Assembly (NCBI GenBank): GCA_028716965.1
Contig: JAQUOV010000003.1
Location: 69,302 to 133,301, forward strand
DNA length: 64,000 nt
Direction: 5' to 3'
Origin: Candidatus Omnitrophota bacterium
GTDB lineage: Bacteria; Omnitrophota; Gorgyraeia; Gygaellales; Profunditerraquicolaceae
The number at the start of each line of letters is the position of its first letter. Positions within the stretch are counted from its first letter, which is position 1. This document shows positions 30,001 to 60,000 of the stretch, in pieces. The notes below the pieces were generated by a model, which did not search any database, had not been told where the DNA came from, and worked only from the letters and a program-made list of their open reading frames with translations. The position numbers were made by a program, and so were the translations under genes.

Positions 30001-33000
30001 AACGCTATGTCTTCGTATCCAGTGCCATTTTTCATATTAAAATCGTTCAGAGATATATCTCTGTCCAACTCATTTTTTGCGGATTCTAACTGCATAACCA
30101 ACGTTGCTATCGATTTAATCCCCGGTTCAGGGCTATCAATACCTATATCGAAGATTCCCGGGAGATTTTGGCCTTTCAATAATTTCAACCTCTTGCTTAC
30201 TCTCCTTAAGTATGCCCCATAAACCATAAGGCCGTTCTTGATCTCATGCAGCGCATCCGGCCCTTTTATCGATAGGTTATTGGCAATACTAAAAGCCTCC
30301 GGGTCTATATTATTACTCTGCCGCTTCCCTTCGTCCTTAACAGGGCTTGCTGCTTCCTTCATAAATTCTGCTTCGGTAGAAAGTGCCTTAATGGGTGAAG
30401 ACGACTTCTTTGCTAAAACATTTAGCCACCTGCCAATAATCTCAGCTACTTCATTATCCGGGAGTCTGAATTTAGATAGCTCGCCGCTTATATGTTCTTC
30501 GGTCACTTTTCTAAAAGAATCGTCATCTAGAGTATACATATTGCCGCTAAGCTCAAGGAAACCGATCCCCGTCTCGCAGAATCCATCCATAGCTAACCTA
30601 AAAGGCGGAACCATCATAATATACGCAATATCATCGTTACCTATGAGCATAGGATGGGGGATATTCATATCCTGCAGTATTTGTATTAATGAATATATCA
30701 CCTTTGTCTGGGATAAAATATATTCTCCTTTAAAGCCTATCACGGGGACAGGATAATCAGTAGCTTCGAATACATCTAATCCGCCTAATCGGGTTATAAT
30801 TCTCTTAGGCGCATTTTCGACAGCTAGTGTATGGTGCCTGACACTATAAAGGATTTGGAAGTGCAGGTGGTTTACAGAGGCACCGAACTGCCAGGGGTTA
30901 AAGCCTATTTTAAAACCGCTGCTTCTGGCTAATTTGGACATAAACAACGCTGCTTCTATAGCTTTCTGCGATAAAAACTGCGGCTCCCCTTTCTCAGGCC
31001 AGGGAAGTAATAAGGAATGATATTGCTGCATAGGGTTTTGATTAATATCTACGACTAATAATCCCATATCCAAATCAAGATCAACGATCCTTCTTTCAAG
31101 GCATTCCTCATACCATTTGTTGAAATTTCCCTTTTCAGGGTCAAATGGTTCGTAAATATTTATCGGTACAGGCACAGAACTTAAGCGCTTGGCTGCTCCG
31201 TGTTCCGCATCATATTGCCTTCTGCCCTCCGGGAAAGTTTGTATAGTATAATTTCCTACCTGCCTTGTTTTGATTTTAGTGTTTGAATAAGAAAATATGC
31301 CTCCTTTTGCCATTTTCCCATCCCAAAGCATTCTAAAGAGATCAATAAAACTTGCGCCACCCGATAAAACTAAATTACCAAGCCCCATACGTTCGCCATC
31401 CAGCCTGCGTTTGTTATCGAATAGGAAAACCCCTTCCTCAAGCGCTGAAGAAGTTGTTCTGCCTTCAATACTGCTGCGATAAAGTTCCAGATATTTGGAA
31501 GCTGATACCTCCCAGCTAAAATTACAATTTATGGCATTTTGAATTAAAGCCCTCCTTAATCTTTCGTTTCTATACGTCCTGACAGCTCTCTGAATAGCTA
31601 AAAATGACTCTGAAGGGTCTGCTTGCTCAAATACAAACCCATTACCCTGGAATGTCTCTTCATTAAACTGTGTTATTGTATCTGCCAAGCCACCGGTCCT
31701 GCGTACAACCGGAAAGCCTCCATACCTAAGGGCATAATCCTGAGTCAATCCACAGGGTTCTTTACGGGAAGGCATTACAAATAAATCTTCTCCGGCTAAC
31801 AGTAATTTATCCAATGTTTTTATTAACCCATCATTGTGATCTTTTAACTCCATTTTGCTGCCTGTACCAAAATTAATACTTACCTTTCCTCTATAACTTA
31901 TATCTTGGCTGATCGCATTAAATGCCTCTGCTATAGCGCCGTGGCCGCTGCCGATAAGCACAAATTGAACTCCTAAATCAATAATCTCCTTAAAACGCTC
32001 CAAAACCAAATCTAACCCTTTATCCGGGACTAATCTGCTGATATTGCCGATAATTGGTAGACCAGGCTCTTGCATAAGACCAAGCTCCCGCTGAAGCATA
32101 GCCTTGTAACGCGATTTGGCTGCCAAAACATTATCTAACGTGTAAGGAGCCGCTTTCTCCAGTATGCTCCATAATTCATAATCTACGCCGTTAAGCACCC
32201 CGTGTAGGTTATCCCTTCTTTTTCTTAATATCCCATCAAGCCCTTCACCATTTTCAGCGGTCTGGATTTGTTGGGCATAAGTGGGGCTTACTGTCATTAT
32301 TTCGTCACTGTAAGTAATGCCTGCCTTCATAAGGTTAATCTTGTCGTAAAATTCTAACCCATCTATTGTAAATACTTCCCATCCTAATCCGGCAATACCC
32401 AGCAGAAACTTATTAAATATACCCTGATAACTTAGGTTATGGATGGAATAAAAAATAGAAGCCCCCTTAAAAGAAGTATCGGCCTTATATTCCGGATGAG
32501 TTTTAACTAAAGGAGCCACCATAGCTGCCTGCCAATCATGCGCGTGAATTACATCAGGGCTTAAGTTAAATTCCCTGGCTATTTCCAGCGCGCCCTTTGA
32601 AAGAAATACCGCCTGTTCAAACCTCAAGCGTTCCAATAAACATTCCAGCTCATTTGAAAATATATCTCTGCCTAATCGCGCGTTTATAATCGGCCTTACC
32701 AAGAAATAATCCCCATCTTCACCCCCTAAATATAATTTCTTTGAATATACAGGGTGCTCTAAGAAAAAGAAATTTACGCCTCGAAACTCTGTCATCCAAA
32801 CCGGAGCAGTTTCTATCCTGCTTGCTATTGCAACCATGACTTTCTTGCCTGTGTCTTTTATACCAAATTTTTGCTTGTCTATTGAATCGTAAAGAATAGT
32901 TGTAACATAAACCTTCTGCCCTAATTTTGCCAGGGCGATAACCAAGCCCTCAAAGGCATCAGCCAGTCCGCCCTCTTTTGAGAATGGGTCTGCTTCGGGG

Positions 33001-36000
33001 CTGATATGGAGTATTGTCATAGGAGAAGAGCCCCCCACTATTGCAACATCAGCTCCGTATGAAAGTATGCCAAGCCCGGCCAGTTTATCCTTAACCCTGC
33101 CTTCACCGGTAAAAACCCCGCCTTTGTATATTTTTAGTTCAAGTTCGTTATAACCACGCCGCTGTGTCCAACTCAAAAGGAAATGTACAAAATCTTCCTG
33201 ATCCGCCATAAGCCTTTCGTCAATATCGCTAAAATTGGCGGTGAACTGATGTGTATGGCCAAGAGCAGGATGCAAGCCTTTGAATAAAGGCGCGAAATGC
33301 TGGTTATTTACTTCACCATAGATACCGAGCTCTTCTAATGCATAAGGCTCTAACTCTGACCAATGGAAGCCTTTTGATATAATCATAAGGCTCCTGTCAC
33401 CCATTTTTAAAAATTCATAACCTGTCTCAACCCCGCCTATAAATAAGAACCTAAAATCACCGCTGGGTATAGGGGCATATACGGGCGTGCCATTGTGGCG
33501 GATATCCTTGCTTTCCAAATCCCGCAAATGCCTGCACCTTTTATAGAGCGCTTCAAACACTAATTCTTGCACGAGCTTGATGTTTTCTTCCGGAAGGCCT
33601 GCAAGGCTTTTTTCAATTAAGTAGCTTGGTTCATTACCCCTGGTATCCTCTTCTTCCATCCACCTCTCTATTAACCGGTCAAAAACTCCGGGTAATCCTA
33701 TCATTTGTTTTATAATAACGCCTCTTGTTTCTGCATCTTCATCTTTGGTGGACTGTATCAACTTCTCGATAAGCTCATCTTCGGGTGACAATTCTTTTAC
33801 GGGCAACATAGAAACATCATTATCCTTAAAGAATACCTTGGCCTTCTCTGGTCCGGGATATGGCCCCTGACCGACCTCAAGCATCTTATTTCGATCACTT
33901 AAGAATTCGATATTATGACCAGCCATGCACAGGATCTTATCACCCGTCTCCAATATAACTTCTGCTACCTGCTCTTTATTTTTAGAATATACAAAGAATC
34001 TAGCTTTCCCCCTCTGTATGATAATTACTTCTAATGGCTGGTTATCAATAGGTGTATGAATGTGCGGCCTTCCTATATCGCCTTTTGGCGGCGCCTTAGT
34101 GCCTACTGCAAGCGGGAATGAATTAGTACAAATCACGGTGAATTTTTCAGGAGCAATATGCGCTTTTAATATCAAGGCAACAGGTTCATTGTTTTCGTCA
34201 TAGACAACTTCAGAGACGCGCTCTCCGTTTATTTCATGCATTGTTAAAGGTTCTTCCGGATTCCTGCTTATAGTCAAAACAGGGGTCTGCCTGACGATCG
34301 TTACCGTAGAATCCTCAAGCATAGTAGCCTTGTATTCAATCAGCGTCGTAGCCGTATCCTGTCTCTCTAATACTATAACCTTGCCTCCAATCTCTATCTG
34401 CACCCTGCCCCTCTCAACATAGAAAACCTCCTGATGTAAAGCCACTCCCCTTGTGTAAATAGCTTCCCCTTTCTTATAATCGAATACTTCCAGCTGAATG
34501 GGTAGTTGTCCTGAAGTTTTACCTCTTTCATTCTTCCCCATAAGGACTGCGCAAGAGTCGCCTTGATTGTCTTTTATTATTACAGAGGATGAAGCTTCAT
34601 TAATATTGGCATATACTTTTATATATAGCCGGGTTCCAAATAGAGTTTCCGATGTGCCCTTATTTAGCGTTAACTGGTTATTATCGCTTTCCTTTGTAAA
34701 TATCCATTGGAATCTTCTTCCGTTAGTATCAATTATAAGTTCAGCCTTATTAAATCCGGTAAGCAAATTGTATAAGTTATAGAATCCCATACCATTACCT
34801 TTTACTCTGTTAGGGCCAACTAAATCCCCGGGCTTTTCAAAGATCCCCGGGATTCCATCCCCATTATCTATTGCTAGTAATTCGAATACTGCAGCCTCTT
34901 CTTCTCTTTTTACCCTGGAGAGCATAATCATATTTCTATTTTGGGGTATGTGCTGGGCATTTAGAGCTAATTCTCCGGCAACCGCGCCAGCCAAGCGCCT
35001 TATATATGAATACCTGCCCAAAAATACACCAAGCTGCCTATCAACCATATCTTCTGCCGCTTCAGAAAATTCGCTCGCCAGAACTAATCCTTCATCAACA
35101 GGCTTGTTGCGAACAACCTTTCCTTTTTCAAATGTAGAAATGATATTGTATCCTGCCTCTCGTAATCCCGCTTTCAGTTCTTCCATCCTTACTGTTTCCA
35201 TAACTTGTTCTATTGAACCAAAGGAGTCAGTTAGGGCCATTTTGAAACCTTTGAATGCGCTGCTTGATCCCATCTGCGTTAACCAACCCAGCAAATCATT
35301 GGTAGAAGGCTCTTCACCCAACCTCAAGCGTAACTCGTCTAATCTGGAATCTTTTATTATTCTTCTATTGGTAGAACAAAGCAGTTTTATTTCAAGAAAC
35401 GGAATATTTAATTTTATGGCCTTCCTTCTGGCCTCAAGATGAGCTTCAAGGGTTTTTATAAAATCAGGATTGTTAAGCTGCGGACTGGGTTTTAAATAGC
35501 CTATTACAGAATAAAACTCATCATCTTCGCGGCCATATATGTGTTTAATGTTGGCATTATCCTCTAATTCACCTCTAATCTTAGCGAGAAGAGTTCTATC
35601 TTCCGCCCTTCCTTTTATTAAGATTAGCCCGTTTGGAGTCACTCTAATTACCTGGTCTTTTCTGCCTTCTCTTAATGCCCCATAAAAAACCTTAATCTCG
35701 AAAGGCCTCTGCTGCTTAATCCATTTCAATATATAGCTTAAATCAATATTTGATTTTCTTATTGAGGATAAGAGGTTATTAATATTCAAAGCGTCTTTTC
35801 CGTGATTATTTTCTGTCAAACATACTATTTCTGCAAGCGTAGCATGAACGTTATACAAATCATATAATTCCAAAGAAGCGCCCACTCCAAATTTATCAAA
35901 TATTTCTTTTAACCCCTGCTGTTCTTTTTTTATCTTTTCCTGTGTATTTACATCAAACGGGCCACCGATAATTAAACTAAGGTCCAGTATATTTTCATTC

Positions 36001-39000
36001 ATCAGCTGGTTCATCTTACGCATGGCTTCCAAATTAAATTGCATCGGAGATGAAACAGCAGCCAAATATTCCATCAAATTCGTAACCGCATGCTTCTGGC
36101 CTAATTTTAATTCCAGTTCTGCCAGGCGGGATTCCCATGTTAGCCTCCTATCAACCGAACAAATCAATCTCATCGAGGTAACGGGGATATTTAATTTTAT
36201 AGTTTTCCTCCGGGCCTCAAGGTAATTTTCAAGGGCGTTTATAAAATCAGATGAATTGATTCTATCATCGGAAGGCTTCAAATAGGCCAAAGCAAAATAG
36301 AACTCGTCGTCTTCCCTGCCGTATGCATGTCTGATACCGGCATGATCTTCCAATTCACCCCTGAGTTTAGCCAAAAGACCACTGTCTCCTATAGGTCTGC
36401 CCTTCAGCACTATCAATCCGCCTGGAGTTACTTTTATCACTTCATCCTTCCTATCTTCTTTCAAGGCGTCCCGGCTTATTTCTACAACAAAAGGCTTCTG
36501 TTGCGTAATCCATCCTAACAAGTAGTTTATATTGATTTTCGACCGGCGGATTATATCAATTAAGCTGGCTATACCCTGATCTCTTGCCGAAGTTACCGCT
36601 ATTCCCGTAAGCGTAGCATGGACATTATATAAATTATAGGATTCTATTAAATCTTCTAAACCGTGGGAATTGAATATGTTTTTTATTCTATCCTGCTCTT
36701 CTTTTATCAACCTTTGCGTATCTGCATCAAACGGGCCGCCCATAATCAAAGTTATATTGCATTCGCCATCGCTAATTATCTGATTAAACTTTTGTATCTT
36801 ATTTAAATCAAATTTTATCGCCGAAGATGCACCTTGTTTGCCATTATGGTTGTTCACTGCCGTTATGCCGATATGGCAGACATCAGATCCGCAGCAGGCA
36901 TTCCTAATACCTTGCAGATACGGCACTATACAGCCGTTAGATATGATATGTTCGTTGGATCTCTGGATGGCGGCACACAAAAGCTGATTAAATCCTTTGA
37001 CCTCCATCGTCGCACCTTTGGACGGCATATGCGACTTCATAAACTCAGTTATGCCCATAGGGTAGTAAAGCCCCTTAAGGCCCGCCTGGATCCTGTCTAT
37101 TGCCTCTTCGCATTCCTGAATCCCCTGCTTTAAGGCCTCCCTCTCCCTGATGAATTCGTAAGCTAAAACCTGGATCTGCTCCTTCATCAATAGTTTTCTT
37201 TCGTTTTCCTCTTGAGAATACGCCAAGGCCCTTTTTAACAAAACACCTAAGACAAATTGGAATACAGGCAAGAGCCGGAACAACACTACCTCTTCATGCC
37301 TGCACTTGCTGTAATGATAGTTCAAGATAAAACTTTTCACGATCTTGGGCCAAAGCTGCACTGTCTCCAACCAGGCATCCTCAATCCTCTGATCCAGATC
37401 CCTGTTGTTCAACTCTGCCAGGCTTTTCAATTTAGCGAAAATATCCTCTGCCAGCATCTCCCGGTAACAGACCTGGAAGAGTTCGCTGAAAAAGTCCTTC
37501 CGGAAAGACTCAATCCACTCTTGGGGATCAATCTCAATATCTTCCGGGGCTTCAGTAGCAGTATTGACCTCCGGGTCAAATACCGTTACCTCAGCCACCC
37601 CTCTGGCTGATACCCGGTAGTCATCCTGGCTGATGGCTTTTTCTCCCCATAAACGGAAGCTATTGCGGATCTCATTAAACAATACGCCGACCACATCATT
37701 GAAGATAACCTCCAATATCCTGTAAGACCTGCCGTTAACCCTTATTGAACTATTCAGCGTCTCTACCGGTATCTGCTTCTTCTGCTTTAAATCTATCTGC
37801 AGGATCCTAAAACCCCTTGAGGCAGAGTTTACCGCAACCCAGAAATCCATGCCCTCCCCTACAATATCCCTGGCGTATAGCAGACGCGGGTCGTCAAGCA
37901 AAGCCTCCAGCAAATCCCTGCCCATGGCGAATTCGCCTGCTCTTGGCTGAGAGAGAGATACTCCGTATATAGCCCTTATTAATTGATAGATAAGTGTCTT
38001 GGTGATCCCTACGCCGGATATAGAGCGTTCATACCAAGAACAGGTCAAATCATATTGGTCAATAAGTTCATAAGGCTTCGCTAATCCTAATGCCAGTAGC
38101 CCATTCTTCATTAAAGGGGCAAGAAGCCCCCTTATGCTGGTCTTATCTAAACCTTGCGTATCCCCTTTAAGGCTCACAAAATAGCCGGCGTTAAGAAGCT
38201 GCGCGATCCTTAAGCCGTAAAGGATGCCGAAACCTCTGCCGAAATTGTTCATCGGCTTTATGATATTCAATTGATGGATATTGTCTGGTGCTTCAACATC
38301 CGCAGAGAAATCCTGCTCCTGCATTTTATATCCTGCTTCAAATATAGGAAGGATAACGTATCTGCCGCCTATGCCCAGCTCCTCCCTAAGCTGCGCTTCC
38401 CCTAAATACTCCTTTAAAGCGGCCTGTATAATACTGATGTTCTCCTCTACGGCCGCGGGGTCTGCATCAAGAGGGCAGGTCAATGCAAAAACTATATCTG
38501 CCTCCTCTCTGCCGAGAGTAGCCTTTAACCGCAAGGCTGATCTTTGCAATTCTTCTTCAAAAGCAAGGACCTCTCTTACTTTAAGCTTTAATGCCTCTAT
38601 CAGAGCTAATATGTCCTGGCTGTGGTCAAAGACCCTGGTGTCTAATTTTACATTGAAGAGAATGGCTATGTCTTTTATGTCAAAAAGGTCCCTTTCGTTA
38701 ATTTCTTCCAGGTTGAGCCCTTCCAAATAGCCGTATATCATCAGGGACAGAGCCGCAAAGGCCTCTGCTCTCTCCCGGCTATTATCCAAGCGCAGGATAG
38801 ATTCATAACGTTTTACGAAGTTCTTCCGCAGACTGTAACCATACTGGTCGAAATAATCCTTAAGGTGACGGCTCACAAGATAATTCTCGATTACGTCAAC
38901 CCTGCCGTTCTCTCCTATAACCTGACTTACCTTTTTATTCTCCAGTAGAATCCGCATCGCCTGTGCCGCCTGGCTGATGGAGAGTTCTCTAAACTTGCCC

Positions 39001-45000: not shown

Positions 45001-48000
45001 CTGCCTACCCTGACCTTGATACTTCCGCCCGCCTCTAATTCTCCTGTAAACCGTGATGTCAAGATGCTTTTTCTATCCCTTTTCTCTTTCACATCTTCGA
45101 CCTTTACCCTGATGCTTTCTCCTCCTGTCAACAACTCCAATGCCTCCAGCTTGATATAGAGAGTGGCCTGATCCAGGGTGGAATGTAACACAAAGCTGTT
45201 ACTGAGCCCTAATTTTTCTCCCAGCTCCTTCATAGATTCCACAAACATGTTCTCATTTACCCTGCCCTCTTCTCCCAGCGCCTTGTTCTTTATATGCTGT
45301 CCGACGAAGATGAAATTAGGCAGACTTCCTCCTTCAAGGGTTATCACCCCGCTTAGCACCAGGCGATTATCAACCTCTCCCGCCACGTCCAGGAGATAAT
45401 GGATAAAGTAAAGCCAATCCAAGGGAGCTTTATCTGACCCCCGGTTGATCAATTCCTTTGTTTCTGCCTGCAATACTTTTACTACTTCCTGCTTTAGAGT
45501 TGCTCCTTTCTCAAGGCCCTTAAACCTATACCTCAATGCCGTCCTCTTAGCCTGGATTCTGTCGTTCTCCCTGATAGTCAAAGTTGCCTCAAGGTTCATC
45601 GGGTCTCCGGGAGAAGGGATATACCCCCATCCTGCTTTCTTAAGCATTTCCTGTAATTTACGGGAGCTTCCGCCATCATCATGGGGAGAACAAATAATCG
45701 CTATGCTTAAATTTTCGCGGCCGAAGACATCTCCAAGCAGGTTTTCCATGAGGATCGTCGGCACCCCTCCTGAACCACCCATTATTCCCACTATATTAGG
45801 CTTATTGTAAACACTCCTGTCTTCCGGCATCTTATTTAAAACAGGATTATCCCCTTCAGCCATCAATATTACGTCCTTGAACTTTATTTTCCCTTCTTTA
45901 TCGCTATTAATAATCCTGCTGATAAACCTGTTTAATTCATTGCGCCTGCCACCGAACACTTTTAATAAATCATTGTAATAGGGATTAAATAGGATTATTT
46001 CCAGGACCTCTTCTAATTCTTTGTCCGCCTGTCCTTGTCTTTTCTTAAGGGCGTGCCTCTCCCCGCTTTCCAGAAATTTCTTCAGCCTATTTAGCTCTCC
46101 TACCCCGATCAAAACGCTCAATAGTTCATCAAATTCGCCAATCCAGATATCTTTGTCATTTACTTTCTCCGTAATACGCCATTTTGCCTTGATATCCTTT
46201 ACCAAAGTGTCTTTTTCCCTGCCATCTTTTTTACCGAACCCTTTAGTATATAAAGAGCATACTGTATTGCTTTTTAAGTCGTGACGATCCAATAATTCCA
46301 CCAAAACTGCCAGCTTCTGTCTTGCGCTAAGTTCGCTGCCCAGGACGGTATCAAAAAATTCTTCTGTCTTTTGGTGGTGCTTGGCCCATGCGTCAGCGGT
46401 CATCCTGGAATATAACGGTGCAACTAAATTAAAATCGAGCAGTCCTTCATCCAAACCATCTACTATAATCGTATAAGTAAGCTCGCCTATCCGGCTATCC
46501 GTTTTGCTGCGCATTGCCATCATCAATTCGAAAAACTCTTTTTCCAGGCCAAAAATAGGAGCAACCATAAACATCTTGCGCAATACCATGCCATAAGCAT
46601 TTATATCTTTAATGCACAAGCCTAAAAGAAGCTCTTCCACCTTAGGCGCCTTACCCCGCTCCAGCAATTTTATCAATGCCGCGGCAAAGCTTGTATCATT
46701 GCCATCAGATCCATTTCCAACAAGTTTTACCCCCTCATTAACAGATAACTTAAACAACTTTTTTGCAAGATTAAGTTCCTGTTGCATAAGGCCATATATA
46801 CCATATTTTATTAACCCTCGTCCCGAAGGGATAACTGTATTAGCAAGCTTAACGCCTTTTTTGACCCGGACACCACGTTCTACCAACGCGTTGCTTACAT
46901 CTGCCCCTCCTCCTATTATTACCCTTCCCAAAAGCCTGACATTACTTAAAGTTACATCCCTACCCAACCTAACTCCCTCTCTCTTGGCCCCTCCCAGATC
47001 TAAATGCACGCGGCCAATGATGCGTAACCCCCTACCTATTCTTTTGGAAATATTACTGGTAGCAAACCTGCTGTCCGCTCTTCTACCTACGCCTAAGGTC
47101 AATTCGGATTCTACAGTTCTTTTGCCATCTTTAAAATCCTCAAATTCTACTCCTTCAGCCTCTTCTTCATCTTCCGGCGCTTTTTTATGCCTCAGGGCTT
47201 TTCCAAAAATCTCTTTCAATTGCCTTTTATATTGGCTGCTGAAACTGTGCTGCTTCGGGATATCTTTTAAACTCGCGGGAGCTTCCCCTACATCCACAAA
47301 TCCTATCGGCCAGGCGCCATCATATTCTTTCTTCTTTAATTCATTACTTAGCAACCTGATTAAATTCCAGGCCAAGGCAAGCGGCAGTTTTGTCTTATCA
47401 TCCGTCTGCCAATAAGCCTCCCTGCCTCTTCGCCCATGATAAGCGTCAAAATAATTCTCTATATCATTACGGAAGATCACTGTATTGGAATTGATCAGAA
47501 TATTTCCATCTCTGTCTATGGCGTATTCCCCTGTCAATTTTTGTTTCTCTGCCTGAGGCAATAAATGCCAATACTTCAATTCATTACCCAGTTTCTGCAA
47601 TTTATTTTTATCCTCATCTGCCAGCCCGCCCCAGTCAATCAGGGCTACCAACTTTCCCTCCTCGCGCCAGAAATTACCCTTTTTCTCCACCTCAAAGGTC
47701 CCATCGTCCTTACGGGAGGCCTTTTTGCCTCCGGCAGTAATGATATAATCTCCTATTACCGCCTCCATATAGGTTATCAAGCTGGCATTGGTCTTTTTCC
47801 TGTCCTGCGCGCTGGCCATCTCTCCAAAGACTATCTGTTTATAAGCCGTATTATAAAATTCTATTCCCAATGCGTTCTTGGCCAGGCTTGACAAATAATA
47901 TCCCGGTCCGTAGGGCTTACATAAACAAATTATCGCATCTTCGGTAAAATATTTCCTGCGCTTATACAAATCTATTTTATCTTCTGCCAACAGGCCTTCC

Positions 48001-51000
48001 TTCCATCCTTCCGGCAATAACATCCCCGCCTGCTTTTCCTTTATAACGGCGAGCTTTTCTTTTGTAACACGGACATCCTCGCCGCGTTTCTCTTTCTCAA
48101 GGAGCTCCTTCTCCAACGCAACAAATTGCCTCAGGTTATCAGCGCGCTTCTTTTCCATATCATCGATCTTCTCCAGCAATTCAGGTATATATTCATCTTT
48201 AACTATCCAGCGCAACTGGTGCATGGAGATAAATATCACCGGCCTGCTGCCGGGAGTCTTATATGAGCCGTTGATCGCCAGCCTTAAATTGGTTTCCCCT
48301 TGTGCGCCGATAAATAACCCCTTGTGCACCTGGTCGGAGAACCTGCTGCCTTTGCCGGCCAGCGCCACTAATTGCGCGGCGCCGAAGAATTTATTGAAAT
48401 CTTCCCGGGTTACATCCTTCCACAATTTCTTTATTGATTTTGCCGTTTTTACTGCCACCGCTTCCAGGTATGCGCGCGCCCTTCTCACCGCTTCCTGCTC
48501 ATCTTTAACCCGCTGAGAATTTACCAGGTTCTCTATACCGGCATATTCCTCGACCTTCTGCCTGAAAGCGCTTCTATGGAAAACATCCTTGCCGTCATCT
48601 TTTGTATGGCTTATGCCGCAGATAACCGCGTTTATCAACCCTTTACGCACTGCCTGCTTAATACCGGATTTCCTTTCTATTAATCCCAGCTCTATCAGCG
48701 AATCATACAACTCCATATTGTAATCAAAAACCACCTCTGTAAATGTTGTGCCTTTTTCATTTGCCTGCTCCATAATTTCTTCGTTGGCCACGCGTTCATT
48801 ACCGCCGTGCTTTGCCACAATAGCCTTGTATTCATCGGAAGCTATTGCCTGCTTGAATTCTAATAGGGTCTGCCTGGCTACATACTGATTTCTGTCCTCC
48901 TTACCTTCAGCCTTAATAACTTCTCCTGTTTTCTTGAAATAGCTGTCCCCCGTACCAACCGCTATACCGGCGGGTATATACGTAAAGACATACGCCTGTT
49001 GTCTTACGGGAAAACCGGTAGCCATAGATAACCCTTCACCTTTGGCTATTAATTTGTAATACCGTTCGATATTCCATCCCTGCGTACACTCAAAATTTGC
49101 CTGGCCGGAAAATAACCCTATAACCTTATCCGCCCCTTCTCCTCCCAGAAGTTTCGCTAACTCCTCGGTTATCCTCGTTGCGTCTATACCCTGGATTGCC
49201 GGCCCTTTAAGTATATGCACCCTCCTGCCTGTGTCTTTATACGCCCTCAAGTTCTTAAAGATATCTTCGTGCCTCTCAGACTTGTTTTTCAGTATCTCTT
49301 CAACCTGCTCAGATGAAATGTCATTACCCAGCACCTTCTCTTTGCACACCACAAACACCTCAAGGTTCTGGTTAAACTCCATTAATTTCTGGATAAACGC
49401 CAGATCAAATATTGCTTCGCCGTTATTATCAAAGAAATATACCAAACGCACTTTTTTCTGGGAATTTACAACTTCTTCATAAAATCTGCTGAAATCGCGT
49501 TCAAAATCTTTATTTGATAATTCTACGGACTCTGAAAATTTACCCTGTATAAAACCAGTAGGATCATTATCAAACTCCTGGCGTATGATAGGGTTATTGA
49601 TATCTATAACCCCTCCTACAAGCGCCAATTTTAACCAGCGGTCAATCTCTTCTTTGCGGTCAAAAAGCCTGCCGCTACCTGCCTCGTATACCGCGTCTAT
49701 TGCCAAATCATTAGCCATACTATTCACTGCTTTATACGGCTCAAATTCCCCTTGCAGGCTGCCTTCCAATTTTACCTGCATAATCCTACGCACAATATCC
49801 AAAGCGTAACTATTAGTTATGAATTTGCGTAACTGCCTTCCACCCAATTTCTGCGGGCACCACGATAACACCATGCTTACTGCCAATTGCATGTCAGACA
49901 AATACTCTTTTTCTGTACATTTTCCCGGATTTTGCTCTAAGTAAGCCTGCAACTCCTTTGGTATAATGCCCATTAAATATTTATGATAGTTCTCCCAAAA
50001 CGGCTTAGATTCCATCTCACCATGCGTATACAACCCTGCCTTATAATCCCAATGCCTCGGTAGAAGGTCTATTACCTTTATATAATCCGGCACATCGGTA
50101 TCCAATATAGGCAACCCTAAAACTTCGCGAATTATATACTCCTCCATATCCTTTTGAGTAATAGATTCTGCTGTAATCTTTTTTGCTTCAGGCTGCTGAT
50201 TTCTCCATTCAGCAACAAGTTCCTTATTAACCCAGTTGAATATTCCATTTATCTGCTCAAAGCTTGGAGTCTCCTCCCCCAGCGCCGATGAGGCCCCCGA
50301 GATCTGGCTGTACAGCCAGTTTGCCGCATTGATGGTGTTCTGGATATATGTTCCCCTTTCCTGCGGGTCATATCCTTTAAAGTCGTTGTTTCTGTAATTA
50401 TCGCGCTCTCTTAAGGCCTTGATCTTTTCAAGCATCCAGGCGGATATCTTGGGATCCTCCTCCTGCTGATAAAGCTTTAGATAATCCGCCGCGTCATCTC
50501 CAATACCTAAGCGGTATAACATCGCCGGCCTAAAGAAGCTGTCTAAGTAGGCTGTATCCTGGCGCTGGTCTAATACATCCCAGAGCCCCTGTATATAAAG
50601 TGGATCTGCTTTCTGGATATCAGAGGACAAAACATAGTAAGCGCCGAGTATCCCTTTGGCTGGATCTTTGTTATCAATAGCATGGTCTAAGGGATATTCA
50701 ACCATCTGCAGGATATTGTTTCGTAAGACAATTGTCTTGGTAGAACCGGCACTTACATTGATTACCTGCTTGAGATTGCCTCTTAACATCCAGGCAAGGG
50801 AGCCTGGACCGGCAATAAGCGTACCGCAGCGGCTGTTGACCACAACGCTGTCTACAAGGCTGCCTGCATTGATTATAGAGTTGATCACCACTACCTTTCC
50901 TTTGATATGCAGGTCCCCTCTCTTGTAAGAGGCTTCTGCCTCAGGGCTGTTGATAAAGAGAGGATATTTGCTTGATTGGGGGATCTTCAGCAGCGCACAG

Positions 51001-54000
51001 AGCACCTCTTTATTGCCTGTCTCTTCGGATAACAAATCATTGTAACTCTTAAACAGCGTAGGCGCTTCGCCGATATCGATGAAGCGGGATTCTTTTCCGG
51101 CGTCAAGGTAAACTAAACCGTCAACGCTTTCGCGTTCGCAGAGGACTTCTTTTAAACGCTGGGCAAGGTCATATATATAACCATAACGTTCAGTATCGGC
51201 AGCAGTAAGCTCATTGGTATGGGATTTCTTGGTCTTAAGAAGCAGGTATTTCTGCAGGGTCGGCTGGGTCACTGCCTGCAGGATATCAATAGAGAAGTCC
51301 AGGTTGAGCATCTTTAATTGCTGTTTAAGCTCTTCCTGCCTGTCCTTAGTCTCGGTAACAGCCAACTGCTTATGCAAGGCAAGTTTCTGCTGGAAGATGG
51401 TTTCATAATAGAGATCCACTACTACCCTGGCTGCCTCCAGGCTGTATCTGTGGTTCCACCAGTTAAAATTAGTATGGCCGCGTTCAAGGATATCCTTTAA
51501 TTCCATCCAGGTCATCGGCTTTTCGATCATCCTGCTGATCAACAGCGGGCTGTCTTCATCAGGCCAGATCTGGCCTAACTGGCTGATCTTGTAAAGCACC
51601 GGAGTATGGATCTTGCCGAGCCTGCCTTTATCCTTACCTAAGTACTCTTTTAATTTATCGTTAAGTTCGGATTCGGATAGCTTAAGGATAAGACGGTTAC
51701 CTTCCCTGTATATCCAACCCATGGCAATACACTCCTCTACTGCCTGCCGGGCATCCGCATAGTTGCCGAATACCTCAATGCCTTTGCCTAAGCCTCTTAC
51801 CGGCTGGGATATCGCCCAGAACTGGTCATTGGAGATGCAGGTAATAGAGCCTTTTGGAGTATCATCCAGTAATTGCAGAGCCTGCAGGTAAACCTGCTCA
51901 TTCAATTCCAGGGTAACACCTTTGTATACTGCCGGCACGATATTGCAGCCTTTATAGCCAAAACGGCTGGCAGTAAGAGGATAACCGCGGCTGCCTGTGC
52001 CTGCGGTATGTATCATCAGGACTTGCGGGTTAACAGGAAGCCTGCCTTCTTTGATAAGGCCAAGGATATAATGCTGGACAAAGACAGCGCCGTCAAAGTT
52101 ATACATCTCTACCTCTATACCTTCCATGGTACGGGAGATAACTTCTACCTTGGTGTCTTTGAAGAGTTCGCTTATAGGATGGCTGTTAAAACGCTGTCTT
52201 AAGAAGATTGCGTCTTTTTCGGAAGCAGTGGTATAAAACACCAGGTCAAAATTCCTGCCGCTTGCCAAATGCTCCTGCGCGCGCTGGATATAGTAGAGTG
52301 AAGCTTGGGGAGTCTGGTTCTTTACCGCGCGCAGGCCGATAATGAACTCTTCATGTTCCTTAATTAAGGTGATGAGCTCTTCCGGAGTATTCTTCTCAAG
52401 GAAGTTAAGCACTTCAGTACGGTAAATCTTATGTTCAAGCCAATGCCCGATTACGGCCTCAACCAGCTCAAGCTTATTTCTTAATGGCGCCAGGTTATCA
52501 AAGTGATTTTTCATCTCTCGGCTGATAAGCTCTTGCTCAAGAAGGTTATTAGTAAACAGGCGGCGTTCAAAATTCGGCAGCGCGCGTATAAATAGTTCAT
52601 GGAAGGAATTGACATCAGTATTATTTAGAAGCGGGGCAAAGAATGATGCTGCGATATGCTGGATCCTTAGTGAATTTGAGCGGGTTTTCTTGACAAAAGA
52701 ATTTATTAACGATACGATGGCAGCGAGTTCTTCCAGGGCTGTCTCTGCCGGGTTTGGCGCCCGCGCCTGCACGTGCTTAAGCAGAAGATGTAAAAGTATA
52801 TGGCGGAACTCTTCATAGAGCAGCTGATGGTATAAAAGGCTTGGCTCCTCCAGGAGAAGGTTATCAATAATTAAGGTAAGTTTATCTTCATTGTAGTAAA
52901 CAGCAGAGAGTTTTTTATAACCGGTGCGTACCTCAAGATTCAGCCCGGCCTCAATAAGCTCAGGATACATTTTACATCCTGTTTCATATATACCTGCCAG
53001 GTTCTTGGAAGCCGCTATCCTGCCTGCGCGGCGCAGGCTTGCGATAACATCAGGGAAGCTTCCGCTTAAGAGGACCTGCGAGATCTGTCCTTCAGAGAGA
53101 CGGTTAGCAAAAGAAGAGGTAAAGAGCGTGGTAACAAAAGCACCTAATCCTTCCTCCCCCAGCGCCGATGAGGCCCCCGAGATCTGGCTGTACAGCCAGT
53201 TTGCCGCATTGATGGTGTTCTGGATATATGTTCCCCTTTCCTGCGGGTCATATCCTTTAAAGTCGTTGTTTCTGTAATTATCGCGCTCTCTTAAGGCCTT
53301 GATCTTTTCAAGCATCCAGGCGGATATCTTGGGATCCTCCTCCTGCTGATAAAGCTTTAGATAATCCGCCGCGTCATCTCCAATACCTAAGCGGTATAAC
53401 ATCGCCGGCCTAAAGAAGCTGTCTAAGTAGGCTGTATCCTGGCGCTGGTCTAATACATCCCAGAGCCCCTGTATATAAAGTGGATCTGCTTTCTGGATAT
53501 CAGAGGACAAAACATAGTAAGCGCCGAGTATCCCTTTGGCTGGATCTTTGTTATCAATAGCATGGTCTAAGGGATATTCAACCATCTGCAGGATATTGTT
53601 TCGTAAGACAATTGTCTTGGTAGAACCGGCACTTACATTGATTACCTGCTTGAGATTGCCTCTTAACATCCAGGCAAGGGAGCCTGGACCGGCAATAAGC
53701 GTACCGCAGCGGCTGTTGACCACAACGCTGTCTACAAGGCTGCCTGCATTGATTATAGAGTTGATCACCACTACCTTTCCTTTGATATGCAGGTCCCCTC
53801 TCTTGTAAGAGGCTTCTGCCTCAGGGCTGTTGATAAAGAGAGGATATTTGCTTGATTGGGGGATCTTCAGCAGCGCACAGAGCACCTCTTTATTGCCTGT
53901 CTCTTCGGATAACAAATCATTGTAACTCTTAAACAGCGTAGGCGCTTCGCCGATATCGATGAAGCGGGATTCTTTTCCGGCGTCAAGGTAAACTAAACCG

Positions 54001-57000
54001 TCAACGCTTTCGCGTTCGCAGAGGACTTCTTTTAAACGCTGGGCAAGGTCATATATATAACCATAACGTTCAGTATCGGCAGCAGTAAGCTCATTGGTAT
54101 GGGATTTCTTGGTCTTAAGAAGCAGGTATTTCTGCAGGGTCGGCTGGGTCACTGCCTGCAGGATATCAATAGAGAAGTCCAGGTTGAGCATCTTTAATTG
54201 CTGTTTAAGCTCTTCCTGCCTGTCCTTAGTCTCGGTAACAGCCAACTGCTTATGCAAGGCAAGTTTCTGCTGGAAGATGGTTTCATAATAGAGATCCACT
54301 ACTACCCTGGCTGCCTCCAGGCTGTATCTGTGGTTCCACCAGTTAAAATTAGTATGGCCGCGTTCAAGGATATCCTTTAATTCCATCCAGGTCATCGGCT
54401 TTTCGATCATCCTGCTGATCAACAGCGGGCTGTCTTCATCAGGCCAGATCTGGCCTAACTGGCTGATCTTGTAAAGCACCGGAGTATGGATCTTGCCGAG
54501 CCTGCCTTTATCCTTACCTAAGTACTCTTTTAATTTATCGTTAAGTTCGGATTCGGATAGCTTAAGGATAAGACGGTTACCTTCCCTGTATATCCAACCC
54601 ATGGCAATACACTCCTCTACTGCCTGCCGGGCATCCGCATAGTTGCCGAATACCTCAATGCCTTTGCCTAAGCCTCTTACCGGCTGGGATATCGCCCAGA
54701 ACTGGTCATTGGAGATGCAGGTAATAGAGCCTTTTGGAGTATCATCCAGTAATTGCAGAGCCTGCAGGTAAACCTGCTCATTCAATTCCAGGGTAACACC
54801 TTTGTATACTGCCGGCACGATATTGCAGCCTTTATAGCCAAAACGGCTGGCAGTAAGAGGATAACCGCGGCTGCCTGTGCCTGCGGTATGTATCATCAGG
54901 ACTTGCGGGTTAACAGGAAGCCTGCCTTCTTTGATAAGGCCAAGGATATAATGCTGGACAAAGACAGCGCCGTCAAAGTTATACATCTCTACCTCTATAC
55001 CTTCCATGGTACGGGAGATAACTTCTACCTTGGTGTCTTTGAAGAGTTCGCTTATAGGATGGCTGTTAAAACGCTGTCTTAAGAAGATTGCGTCTTTTTC
55101 GGAAGCAGTGGTATAAAACACCAGGTCAAAATTCCTGCCGCTTGCCAAATGCTCCTGCGCGCGCTGGATATAGTAGAGTGAAGCTTGGGGAGTCTGGTTA
55201 TAAACATCCCTTAAAGAAGAGACCAGCCAGGAGTAGCGCTCTAGATCAGCGAATATATCCTCTAAAACAGTAACCCTAAGATAATCTAAAATCTCTTCGC
55301 GGTAGAGGTTATGCTGAAGGTAGTGTTGGATGAGTTCAGGGATTATTGCTTTAGTTGAGTAAAGCGGGGGTAGAGAGTCTATCTCCTGTTTGATACCTTC
55401 GGAAATAATCTTGTGATTTAGTAATAGATACAGCCTTTCTTTTTTGTTTGGAGACAGGGAGCGTAATAATATTTTATAGAAACCATTTTTATCGGTAGAG
55501 TTGATTAGGGGCAAGATAATGTTCTTTTGTTTCTTTGGGGGGAGCTTACCGAACATTTCCAGAAGCCGCATATCCGTGAGCAATTCTTCTAAAGCAATCT
55601 CTTCAAAGTTAGGCGCGCGGGCGCGGACATTGCTCATAAGTATCTGTATTAGCAAATGATGGAATTCTTCATGCATAAGCAGAAGTTGAAGCAGGCGGGA
55701 GTGCTCTAAAAGAAAATCTTCTATTAAAAGAGTAAGCCTGCCGGTGCGGTAATATACAGCAGAGAGTTTATTGTAGCCAGAGGTAATCTCTATCTGGAAG
55801 CCGGATTCGTCTAATTCGGGGTACTCTTTCTTGGCGCGGTTAAATACTTCAGAAAGGTTGCGTGCCTGATTTAACCTGCCTGCTGAACGCAGCGCGGTTA
55901 AAACTTCCTCTTTACTGCCGCGGTAAAGCACATTGAGCACCTGGCCTTCAGCGAGGCGCGTGGCGATTGAAGAGGTTAATAAGGATTCGGACGCGAGAAC
56001 TGGAGAGGCCGCTCCGTTTTCAATGCTGCTCCGATACAATTCCAGATATTTGGCAGCCGATATTTCCCAGCCGAAATTGCCATTTATGGCATTATTAATT
56101 AAAGCCAGCCTGTCTTCATCCTTCTGCCAAGCCATTATCGCCCGTTTAATAGCCGCTACCATTGCATCGGTGTTACACGGTTCAAAGAGAAAACCGTTTC
56201 CCTGCTTTGTCTTGGGATTAAATTCTACTACGGTATCTGCCAGGCCGCCTGTTTCGGAAACAACCGGGATTGTTCCGTTAACAAGGGAATAGATCTGGGT
56301 TAATCCGCAAGGTTCATACCTGGAAGGCATCAAGAATATATCCACTCCTGCCACAAGCAGCTTACCCAACGTTTTTATAACAGGATCATGCTGCTTGATT
56401 TTCATTCTAGTGCCTATACCATAATGCAGGCTGACCCTGCGCCTTAGCTGTTCAGGGAGAAGCCGAGTACGGTCTGTAAATTCCCTAAACAAGCTGTCAT
56501 CATCAGAACCAATCAATACAAACTGCACCCCCAGTTGCATAATTTCCTCAAATTTGTTCAGGATAAAATCAGCTCCTTTTTGCCTTGCAAAGCGGGTAAA
56601 CACTCCGATGATTGGCATATCAGAAAGCTCTAAATTCAATTCCCTTTGCAGCATAGCTTTATACCTGCCTTTGCCTGCTAAAACATTAGGCAGGTTATAT
56701 TCCTCTTCATTTCCTAATGATTTCCATTCATCATAATCTACGCCATTAAGTATTCCATGAAGATGCGCTTTCCTCTCTGATAGAACGCCTTCTAAGCCGG
56801 CGCCGAATTCTTCTCCGGGCTTTAAGATTTCCTTGGCGTACCTGTCGCTTACCGTCGTAATCTCATCCGCATAAATAATCCCGCCTTTCATAAGGTTAAT
56901 CTGGCCGTAAAATTCCAAGCCGTCAATGTTAAGCATCTCTTCCCTGTTTAACCCGGTAAGCTCAAAAAGATGATCATCAAACTTTCCCTGATAGTCAGGG

Positions 57001-60000
57001 CCTAAATTATGAATAGTGTATATTACCCTGCTATTTTCTAAAGATGGCTCATTCTTATAGTCGCTATGCTTTTTAAGTAACGGGGCAATCAAAGCAGCCT
57101 GCCAGTCATGAGGATGGATAATATTCGGGTTTAACTGGAATTCCTTAACCAGCTCTAAAGCGCCCTTAGAAAGAAACACTGCCTGTTCAAACATTAATTC
57201 TTTCAATAAGCCGGCGCGCTCATGCATATAGATCTCCCTACCCAATCTTTGGGTAAGATAATCCTGCGCAAGCTCAAAGTCAGAGTTTTGCGCTCCTAAA
57301 TAGAGTTTCTTGGAATATAGTGGGTGCTGCAGGAAGAATACAGTTACACCGTTAGATTTTGCAATCCATACCGGAGCGAATTCTTTTTTGTTGCCTATTT
57401 TTATTATTAAATCCCTGCCGGTATATTCAATGCCAAGCTTATTTCTTTTATCCTCATTAATGTCATCATAAAGCAGGGTACAGACAGATACTATCTCGCC
57501 GAGCTCGGATTGCGCTTTGGGTAAGATGCCTAAAACATCAGCTAAGCCGCCTGCTTTCGCGTAGGGGACAATCTCCGGGCTGACATGGAGTATCTTTAAC
57601 ATCTCAAGCGCGCTTGAAGCCAAGAGAGGCGGCGCGCGGGGCTGGGATTGTTTCAAGAGTAAAGGCGAAGAATTCGAGCCATTTAAATTATCCATAGGAC
57701 ACCTATATCCAGGCCGTGGCGTCCAACCGTATGGACAAACCCAGCCTTGGTCGCCACAATATACTGTAAAATCAGGACAATCTTTAATTTCAGATGTCGT
57801 AGCTGGCTCAGAAGGGATTTGTCGCTCAACAAGAAGCTGTTCCTCTGCTGAACTGATATCTTCAGCAACTTTTGCTGCAACTATATTAATTGCAAGGTTA
57901 GCTCTTTCTGGCGTCAATGTAAGTTTGCCGTAAGATACCAAGAAAATATTGTTATATTTCATATGAATATTATTAATCTGATCCTGAATTTTCTTTTTCT
58001 TTTCAAGACCATTGATTTTCTCTGAAGGATAAACTTCATTGCCCCAATCATCCACTTCTTGTATAAAACCAGTAATAATGTTGCGATATATGCTGTGAGT
58101 TCTAACCGCGTCTGCCTGAAAATAGCCGTGATAATCCCTTCCGACGAATTCCCATAATTCCATTATGCCATTTACATCCATATGTTTAATTACTTGATTT
58201 AAAGAATATGTTAATTTCTCGAGTCTGGTTAAATCAGCTAATAAATATCTGGCTATTCGCGATGCGTCTATTCCTTCTTTAATAATCTTTTCGGTTACAA
58301 TACATAGCCTTTTGAATAATTCCTGCTTATCATATTTTGAGACATCGCTATAATAATATTCTACTTTATTTATACAGTTGTTTGCTATCGATTCTTCAAT
58401 ATTTAGGTTTTTGATTAAATGTGTTTCAAATATACACATTCTTAACTTATGTAAAAATGATGGTTTTACTGATATTATATCGCCTTGCGACTGCCAACAA
58501 AGCCAACTTAATGAAAATACTATCTTGTTGATAATAAGAAACAGACCTCTCGCCAATCCTAAACCTGCGATGAAAATTAAACTGATCATCCAAGGCGATA
58601 ATGAGGTTATATAAGAGACTGCTGTGCAGCTGGGGACCAACAGCATTAAGCTGCTAATAGATAATACTGATAATATTTTAGCTAAGCGGGAGTTATCTTT
58701 TGGTTGTATCGGAGAGCTTACACCTTGTTTCCGGCTCTTAGATAATTCTTTTTCTATCTCCACTAATACCTGTTTGAGGCGAGCGATCTCTTTCGTGGTC
58801 TGGGATACCATGCGCTTGTCATTATGGTTGATATCCAGCGAGGCTATGGCTTGGGTTAAATCCATAACTATAGCAGTACCTTGCTCACGCACTTCTTCGG
58901 GTAGGGTGTTGACAAAACTAAGGGAATCCTTTATCTCCACTAATACCTGTTTGAGGCGAGCGATCTCTTTCGTGGTCTGGGATACCATGCGCTTGTCATT
59001 ATGGTTGATATCCAGCGAGGCTATGGCTTGGGTTAAATCCATAACTATAGCAGTACCTTGCTCACGCACTTCTTCGGGTAGGGTGTTGACAAAACTAAGG
59101 GAATCCTTTATCTCCACTAATACCTGTTTGAGGCGAGCGATCTCTTTCGTGGTCTGGGATACCATGCGCTTGTCATTATGGTTGATATCCAGCGAGGCTA
59201 TGGCTTGGTTCATGGTCGCGCTAATACGAGCCGCATGTTGCAATTTCAACTCTACATCCAGGCTATCCATAAAAGATTCGCTTTTTTGGACCAATGATAT
59301 TACTCTTTCCAGCGAAGTAATATACGCTAATGTTGCCGCCAGCCCACTTATTGATTTACTGCTGCTTAAGATGGTTTTTAATTTAGCTCTTTGCTCGTCT
59401 AAGCTCTTCAGGGTCTGCTGACATAAACTGTACACACTACCAGGTAAAGAGGTCATGTAACCGACTATTGCATTTAATTTCTTCATTACATTAATGATCA
59501 AATTCAACTCCTGCCTGGCCCACTCACGTTCAGTATTTTCATATAACGAACTTATTTTCTTTTTCGTATGCTCTATCTCCTCAGTAATTGCGGCCAATTC
59601 ACCGGCCTTCCGGGAACGGATGTCTTCAGCTATGCCCTCCGCGGCAATTTCTCCTTTTAGTTCGGCAATCTTATCATTATCTCTTAACAACTCTTCTCTC
59701 AATGGGGCAACCTTACTATGAAGGGTGTTGACGGCTTTCGCCAACTCATCAGCCGGAGTACCTTCGGGCGTAAGCCCAAATTCTTCAACCATAGCGGCCG
59801 CATATTCTGTTTTCCCAGGGAAAACCAACTTTCTCATCTCAGTTAAAGCCCCCTCAATATAATTGTACGCTTCCTGATGGAAGAATATCCTAGTCTGCTG
59901 TAAGCGGGCTTCGACTGTGCTGCGGGTTTCAAAATCAAGATTATCCCGGACAGCTTCAAAATCAGCGACTATACCAAGATAAGACTCCTGCAGTTTATTC

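Follow-up and report, generated by a model that had tools for sequence, protein, structure and literature searches.

Introduction

The closest described systems to the gene considered here are the modular megasynthases and the giant multi-enzyme proteins of Omnitrophota. Modules of polyketide synthases (PKS) and nonribosomal peptide synthetases (NRPS) become "trapped" in concerted evolution, and diverged domains escape it (PMC4256081). In the mycolactone PKS, recombination-mediated domain replacement has made like domains 98.7-100% identical, and the repeats cause frequent deletions (PMC2569948). For Omnitrophota, West-Roberts et al. described the "Archaeovorin" giant proteins (bioRxiv 10.1101/2023.11.21.568195), and a 2026 survey placed a "multi-enzyme metabolic cluster" class among long genes, found that 65% of Pfam-positive long proteins repeat a Pfam, reported that just 17% of long genes contain back-to-back nucleotide repeats that are strictly identical, in every case over small fractions of the coding sequence, and concluded that the repeat architecture of long genes is mostly ancient (bioRxiv 10.64898/2026.06.07.730766). 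Here we analyze a 64,000-nucleotide stretch of DNA (the window) from a Candidatus Omnitrophota bacterium (assembly GCA_028716965.1, contig JAQUOV010000003.1), which lies within one giant gene and contains two adjacent modules, A and B, each composed of an N domain followed by a C domain. The two C domains are identical at all of their 2,048 nucleotides, while the two N domains have diverged to saturation.

Like the mycolactone genes mlsA and mlsB, the rapamycin-family PKS and some NRPS, the window gene is a giant modular gene in which like domains of up to 100% nucleotide identity stand beside differing neighbors, the blocks of identity track domain boundaries, and the repeats are substrates for in-frame deletion or expansion (PMC2569948, PMC4256081). 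Unlike these genes it does not encode an assembly-line synthase: domain searches of the window open reading frame (ORF) found no KS/AT/ACP or C/A/T domains, and we therefore rejected the PKS/NRPS-like "enzyme modules" implied by a preliminary description of this DNA. The window gene also differs in having only two copies of its module. In the mls genes, near-identity extends among like domains in all modules, with many recombination stretches, whereas the sequences flanking the identical tract in the window gene are saturated or unrelated.

The domain repertoire of the window gene resembles that of the Archaeovorins. As in that group and in the multi-enzyme metabolic cluster class, a single ORF tens of kilobases long encodes clusters of transmembrane segments and then long soluble stretches, the domains include HEAT, GT5 (glycogen-synthase-like), GT1, HATPase_c, PPDK_N and a response regulator, and repeated domains within one polypeptide are the rule. 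By the published description, then, the gene resembles an Archaeovorin giant ORF in combining HEAT, GT5/GT1, other enzymes and transmembrane segments. It differs in the relatives of its module, the best of which is labelled Aminicenantes; the only relative from an Omnitrophota metagenome-assembled genome (MAG) is 29-31% identical. The window itself contains no marker gene.

Results

An exact repeat in a giant gene corresponds to one entire C domain

Direct string comparison of the assembled sequence showed that positions 50272-52319 and 53152-55199 are identical at 2,048 of 2,048 nt, with no mismatch, and a repeat search of the window recovered the same pair. The offset between the copies, 2,880 nt, equals 960 codons, so the reading frame is kept, and the minus-strand frame is open throughout. 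When the window was compared with itself at this offset, the only run of identity of at least 25 nt was the 2,048-nt tract; elsewhere the identity per 200 nt was 0.2-0.38. A chance match of 2,048 nt is effectively impossible. The two direct repeats of 2 kb are separated by 832 bp.

The frame that carries them spans positions 1-63998 of the minus strand as a single stop-free stretch of 21,332 codons, open at both ends, which contains both modules and the GT5 domains described below. None of the remaining frames of the window has a stop-free run of 300 codons. The gene thus exceeds 64 kb and runs off both ends of the window. In the direction of reading, the first copy (53152-55199, minus strand) is the C domain of module A, amino acids 2934-3616, and the second (50272-52319, minus strand), identified by string identity, BLASTP and hidden Markov model (HMM) searches, is the C domain of module B, amino acids 3894-4576. 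The modules themselves, amino acids 2657-3616 (A) and 3617-4576 (B), are adjacent and share orientation and frame. BLASTP and HMM searches found the module only twice in the 21,332 amino acids of the window, and HMM searches of the window ORF found no additional hidden N or C copies.

Both edges of the identical tract fall on domain boundaries. The first C-domain codon (the N of "NQTPQAS") lies wholly within the tract, which starts with its first base; the last codon of the module ("...SSALGEE") contributes only its first two bases. Upstream of the tract, nucleotide identity is about 35% over 90 nt; downstream, the sequences are unrelated, with the N domain of module B (N_B) following one copy and another region following the other. 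The start of the tract also lies within 3 residues of the point at which homology to the C domain of the Omnitrophota relative begins. The exact repeat is therefore one entire C domain, edge to edge, with knife-sharp junctions. That it comprises precisely one complete catalytic-type domain was absent from the preliminary description, whose other observations on the repeat, namely identity at every nucleotide, an offset of 2,880 bp that keeps the frame and a location in a giant gene, all held.

The N domains are saturated, and the identity of the C domains must be very recent

The N domain of module A (N_A) occupies 55200-56030 on the minus strand (amino acids 2657-2933), and the linker and N domain of module B occupy 52320-53151 on the same strand (amino acids 3617-3893), which is the 832-bp spacer between the repeats. 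The preliminary description had called the stretches that precede the copies, in the sense of the minus (coding) strand, homologous at about 40% protein identity; in an alignment of 278 columns we measured 40.6% amino acid identity and counted three small indels, none of them in the last 75 amino acids before the junction. Across 261 aligned codons the N domains are 49.7% identical at the nucleotide level, and third positions of conserved residues agree at a frequency of 0.396, compared with 0.378 expected from the codon usage of the gene, so the synonymous sites of the N domains are saturated. Identity shows no increase as the junction is approached, and similarity is in fact lowest in the final windows ahead of it. 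These values bear out the old module duplication that had been proposed.

An outgroup helps to date the two parts of the module. The closest relative found, a protein labelled Candidatus Aminicenantes (P0001), covers only the last ~120 amino acids of the N domain, and over this segment N_A, N_B and P0001 are mutually 32-33% identical, while the C domain of the window gene is 57% identical to that of P0001. Since the N domains of the two modules are as diverged from each other as from P0001, C copies that had escaped homogenization should be roughly 57% identical rather than 100%. The absence of any difference in 2,048 nt puts the 95% upper bound on their divergence at about 0.15%, and because of this the identity of the C copies must be very recent. 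The module duplication, as judged from these sequence comparisons, is ancient. The contrast between the C domains (100% nucleotide identity) and the N domains (49.7%, saturated) exceeds what differences in constraint explain. We rejected a simple tandem duplication of 2,880 bp: identity is confined to 2,048 bp of the unit, and its other part is saturated.

Other repeats in the gene have different ages. Two internal duplications, that of the GT5 domains and a 258-amino-acid tandem pair, stand at 50-51% amino acid identity, and the minus strand at 35316-36833 holds an old in-frame tandem duplication with units of ~250 amino acids (residues 9056-9300 and 9314-9561, 50% identity). The two glycogen-synthase-like domains are 24.5 kb apart and 51% identical in protein sequence overall, and they share a short patch at the C-terminal end (56000-56111 versus 31445-31556; also 56723-56932 versus 32168-32371). 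Within this patch, nucleotide identity is 79% and third-position identity 0.75-0.85, compared with about 0.45 elsewhere; the patch may be the footprint of an older conversion. The repeat search also found a second exact in-frame tandem repeat, with a period of 177 nt (59 amino acids) and 2.56 identical units, at 58755-59208 on the minus strand. An older unit at 69% identity lies beside it and reaches 59285, and the repeat is located just upstream of paired hydrophobic, probably transmembrane, segments. This second exact repeat indicates that recent recombination events occur in the gene, and together with the GT5 patch it shows that recombination footprints, recent and older, are not confined to one spot.

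The C domain resembles sugar-1-phosphate nucleotidyltransferases

The 683-amino-acid C domain was modelled with AlphaFold2 from a 16-sequence alignment (predicted local distance difference test, pLDDT, 83.6; predicted template modelling score, pTM, 0.81). The model consists of a nucleotidyltransferase alpha/beta fold, then a left-handed beta-helix, then a helical tail. When it was compared with the PDB using Foldseek, the top 44 matches were the mannose-1-phosphate transferase-type structure 2cu2 (ManC-like) and ADP-glucose pyrophosphorylases, with E values of 1.6e-5 to 1.4e-3 and probabilities of 0.91-1.0 at low TM-scores (0.2-0.4) and about 9% identity. Across the 16 family members, G107, R111 and K123 are invariant and D165 is nearly invariant, within the motifs "HTAGTGSRGYPLT...K" and "SNDQFW". 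The nucleotide-binding signature G-T-G-S-R, located by this alignment, lies at 54867-54881 (minus strand) in C domain A and, as the same motif, at 51987-52001 (minus strand) in C domain B. A PDB profile search aligned this first motif to the RmlA signature GGSGTR(L)YP(V)T. Pfam models gave weak matches among the 16 relatives, Fucose_pyrophosphorylase in 2/16 and NTP_transferase in 2/16.

Against the Pfam and NCBIfam models, the C copies of the window gave no match above threshold, and for this reason we do not file the domain as a member of a curated family. Sequence searches of Pfam, NCBIfam and the PDB did not recognize the module as a whole; only structure prediction followed by a fold search succeeded. 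We conclude that the C domain has its fold and signature residues in common with sugar-1-phosphate nucleotidyltransferases of the ADP-glucose pyrophosphorylase type. It shares with GlgC and related enzymes (RmlA, ManC and the pyrophosphorylase domain of FKP) the nucleotidyltransferase fold with a left-handed beta-helix, the signature G-x-G-[ST]-R...K and the conserved acidic residue in "SNDQFW", and it differs from them in its ~250 extra residues, with a sizeable helical insertion and a helical tail, in its ~9% identity to solved enzymes at TM-scores of 0.2-0.4, and in matching no Pfam or NCBIfam model at threshold. On the strength of the modelled fold, the domain would be predicted to convert NTP and sugar-1-phosphate to NDP-sugar and pyrophosphate.

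The position of the domain points in the same direction. In many operons glgC lies next to glgA, and the C domain likewise adjoins a GlgA-like domain. Because it sits directly after that domain, a GlgC-like role, supplying NDP-glucose to the adjoining synthase, is the obvious inference by analogy. At 0.555, the G+C content at third codon positions (GC3) of the C domain ranks among the higher values in the gene. A foreign origin of the domain was considered and rejected, since this value, although high, is within the range found elsewhere in the gene.

The N domain is predicted to be zincin-like

The N domain (277 amino acids) gave a structure model with a pLDDT of 90.8, for which Foldseek returned no significant match. 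The alignment of its family shows a helix with the motif [E/H]ExxH and a downstream Glu-Glu; in the window, the helix motif reads HEEFH in N_A (55659-55673) and EEFRH in N_B (52800-52814). Together, the motif and the model lead us to predict a zincin-like fold. The [E/H]ExxH helix and the Glu-Glu recall the minimal zincin metallopeptidases (SprT/Spartan, Wss1/WLM and the minigluzincins). In contrast to these, the N domain scores modestly, has Glu in place of the first metal-binding His in most members of its family, and lacks a significant Foldseek match, so that a peptidase activity is only putative. Still more speculative, and in our view very unlikely, is a role for the zincin-like N domain in front of each catalytic domain as a protease that would process the giant polyprotein into separate working enzymes.

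The module is rare and its two domains are separable

A word-indexed search of 5.8 billion proteins with the module as query returned one relative, P0001, at 52% identity. It is encoded on a contig of 2,544 bp (GCA_014382045.1, JACNKL010000009.1) that is coding from first base to last and gives no context; this may be a repeat-broken assembly of the same region in that genome. GTDB species genomes likewise contained one relative, at 29-31% identity, inside a 2,740-amino-acid ORF of the Omnitrophota MAG. When 1.84 billion cluster representatives were scanned exhaustively with HMMER, 28 relatives came to light; none exceeded 55% identity, and most were proteins of 1,200-7,200 amino acids. No module match was obtained with two sets of conserved peptides in the JGI metagenomes, or in IMG/VR, and none of the collections searched, whether of genomes, metagenomes, viruses or proteins, yielded an orthologous two-module locus.

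Mapping of the relatives revealed that the module consists of two separable domains. N domains occur without a C domain, or in several copies, in P0008, P0009 (two), P0012, P0018 and P0020/P0021 (three), and C domains without an N domain also occur. In the closest relatives, P0001 and P0002, N is followed directly by C, and in P0004 (locus L001) an insert of ~100 amino acids lies between them. A further representative-library fragment of 265 amino acids (P0022) passes from the end of one C domain to the start of the next within a few residues, with no N domain between, and tandem arrays of the C domain therefore exist elsewhere. The zincin-like and GlgC-like unit is thus a rare, unannotated and undescribed family, which in the window is fused behind a glycogen synthase.

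Neighboring regions of the window gene

Directly upstream of module A lies a full-length glycogen-synthase-like (GT5 + GT1) domain (56031-57599, minus strand; Pfam Glyco_transf_5, E = 4e-56), so that the order in the coding direction is GT5 domain, N_A, C_A, N_B and C_B. Free-standing GlgA proteins align with 100% of this domain at 36-40% identity; the matches listed are 35-40% identical, and the named ones among them are spread over many phyla, with no taxonomic signal. Pfam- and NCBIfam-type domain searches of the window ORF identified two GT5+GT1 domains of the glycogen/starch synthase type, ARMT1-like, CofD, TreT_GT1, metallo-beta-lactamase, two HATPase_c, Response_reg, HEAT and PPDK_N. 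The fusion of the zincin-like and GlgC-like module behind a glycogen synthase suggests that part of the giant protein is a covalently linked glucan-synthesis line. Hydrophobic clusters occur near the N-terminal end of the window ORF; beyond them, no clear transmembrane segments appear for more than 10,000 residues, a stretch that includes the modules.

The 1,200 residues just downstream of module B (46671-50270, minus strand) include the Pfam ARMT1-like domain, and the word-indexed search of 5.8 billion proteins found no relatives of this region. Plus-strand GC skew takes strongly negative values (-0.2 to -0.32) between 42 and 50 kb and jumps to about 0 over the module region at 50-56 kb; this jump and the high GC3 of the C domain are probably caused by amino acid composition.

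Discussion

The results reported above combine an ancient divergence of the N domains with a very recent identity of the C domains. On balance, we lean toward the view that the N+C module was duplicated in tandem long ago and that its C domain has very recently been homogenized, or has been kept homogeneous, by intragenic recombination. According to this proposal, the N domains would since have diverged to saturation and escaped homogenization, while one C domain would have been overwritten by its twin, or both held alike, through intragenic homologous recombination, that is, gene conversion or recombination-mediated domain replacement. The upstream edge of the identity would then be the point at which N-domain divergence blocks heteroduplex extension, and the downstream edge the end of the original duplicated unit. 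The preliminary description had left the choice between recent partial homogenization of an old duplication and a segment duplicated by the assembly. The old duplication and the recent identity both stand, and for the origin of the identity we keep a short list, in which homogenization is the explanation we favor.

Several points weigh against this proposal. RecA-type recombination requires nearly identical flanks, and the present flanks are ~35% identical in nucleotide sequence upstream and unrelated downstream; the model therefore holds only if the C copies have stayed close throughout or if the converted tract took up the entire homologous block. The upstream edge is perfectly sharp, whereas long-running conversion would be expected to leave a fuzzy one. 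No orthologue with two diverged C copies, which would represent the state before conversion, was found in the collections searched. The length of the tract, 2,048 nt, is 2^11, a suspicious number, and the exactness of the repeat is that of the assembled sequence only.

The last two points bear on the explanation that the identity was produced in assembly or polishing, either because nearly identical C domains were made identical by graph simplification or by polishing with multi-mapped reads, or because the assembler or a manual curator traversed a single module twice. Exact repeats of 2 kb are a classic trouble spot for assemblers, and the sole close homologue lies on a contig that is all ORF and broken at both ends, which suggests a region that is hard to assemble. 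However, the copies are preceded by different N domains, homologous, saturated and in register, and a segment traversed twice would not create N_B; since N_B is a real saturated paralogue, two modules really exist. Both edges coincide with natural domain boundaries, and the intact reading frame of 64 kb argues for an accurate consensus. With regard to the length, neither 2,048 nor 1,024 nor 256 divides the offset of 2,880 evenly, so block-aligned copying does not fit. An error in copying data blocks was accordingly rejected, 2,880 being no multiple of 128 or any larger power of two and the edges being located at domain boundaries, and we found no artefact mechanism that fits a length of 2^11. 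Polishing could at most have erased a few differences between copies that were already nearly identical, which would leave the biology unchanged. We regard an artefact as possible but rather unlikely.

The sharpness of the edges would be accounted for if the C domain alone had recently been copied, by template switching or microhomology-mediated repair, into a gene of the form N_A-N_B-C or N_A-C-N_B. In favor of such a non-homologous insertion, the edges are abrupt at either end, where flanking homology and a gradient are both lacking; a plain tandem duplication of recent date is present in the same gene; and the junction falls at the natural end of the N domain, irrespective of the sequence beyond it. 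The relatives in which N lacks C or is present several times make an N-N arrangement plausible, but in the closest relatives, P0001 and P0002, N is followed directly by C. Moreover, three breakpoints would have to land in frame on domain boundaries, within a residue, a precision not to be expected without guidance by homology unless strong selection filtered the outcomes, and we therefore consider this origin unlikely. The same final pattern would also result if the whole 2,880-bp module had been duplicated recently and one N domain then replaced by a divergent homologue from elsewhere in the gene, from another gene or from another strain. N domains are promiscuous among the relatives, and the extension of the gene past both ends of the window leaves room for donors. 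This route, however, needs two events, of which the second meets the same problems of register and flanking homology; there is no third N copy in the 21,332 amino acids of the window; and N_A and N_B are equally distant from the outgroup, so that neither looks foreign. It seems to us highly improbable.

If the C domains are homogenized by intragenic recombination, as we favor, the window gene adds a recent event to a class of genes whose repeats are mostly old. Relative to the 2026 survey of long genes, an exact repeat of 2 kb would lie at the most recent end; the detector used there sought back-to-back copies, so that a pair spaced by 832 bp would not score. The periodicity of whole enzyme modules had been called unusual in the preliminary description, a judgment that did not stand, as repeated domains are the rule in comparable giant genes (bioRxiv 10.64898/2026.06.07.730766) and domains are 100% identical in nucleotide sequence between modules of the mycolactone PKS (PMC2569948). 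Its view of the site as prone to recombination fared better, as 2-kb direct repeats with a spacing of 832 bp plainly lend themselves to in-frame deletion or expansion.

The repeats have consequences for both the gene and the protein. RecA-mediated recombination between them would allow the locus to lose or gain a 2,880-bp in-frame unit, and copy-number variants should then be present in the population at some frequency. It can further be imagined, although we think it very unlikely, that the repeats serve as an in-frame copy-number switch, in which units of N_B and C (2,880 bp, 960 codons) are added or removed without breaking the 64-kb frame, to give one, two, three or more modules and so tune the supply of NDP-sugar to the fused glycogen-synthase domain. 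Enzymes with the fold of the C domain normally function as oligomers, and because of this the two identical catalytic domains could possibly pair within one molecule.

The pattern described here is well known from modular polyketide synthases and leaves the understanding of gene duplication and gene conversion unchanged. What is new is the setting, a giant multi-enzyme gene that is not an assembly line, and the module, a rare zincin-like and GlgC-like unit behind a glycogen synthase. The repeat provides a specific locus at which to seek in-frame copy-number variation and, if it is real, it is direct evidence that recombination is now reshaping a giant multi-enzyme gene, domain by domain.

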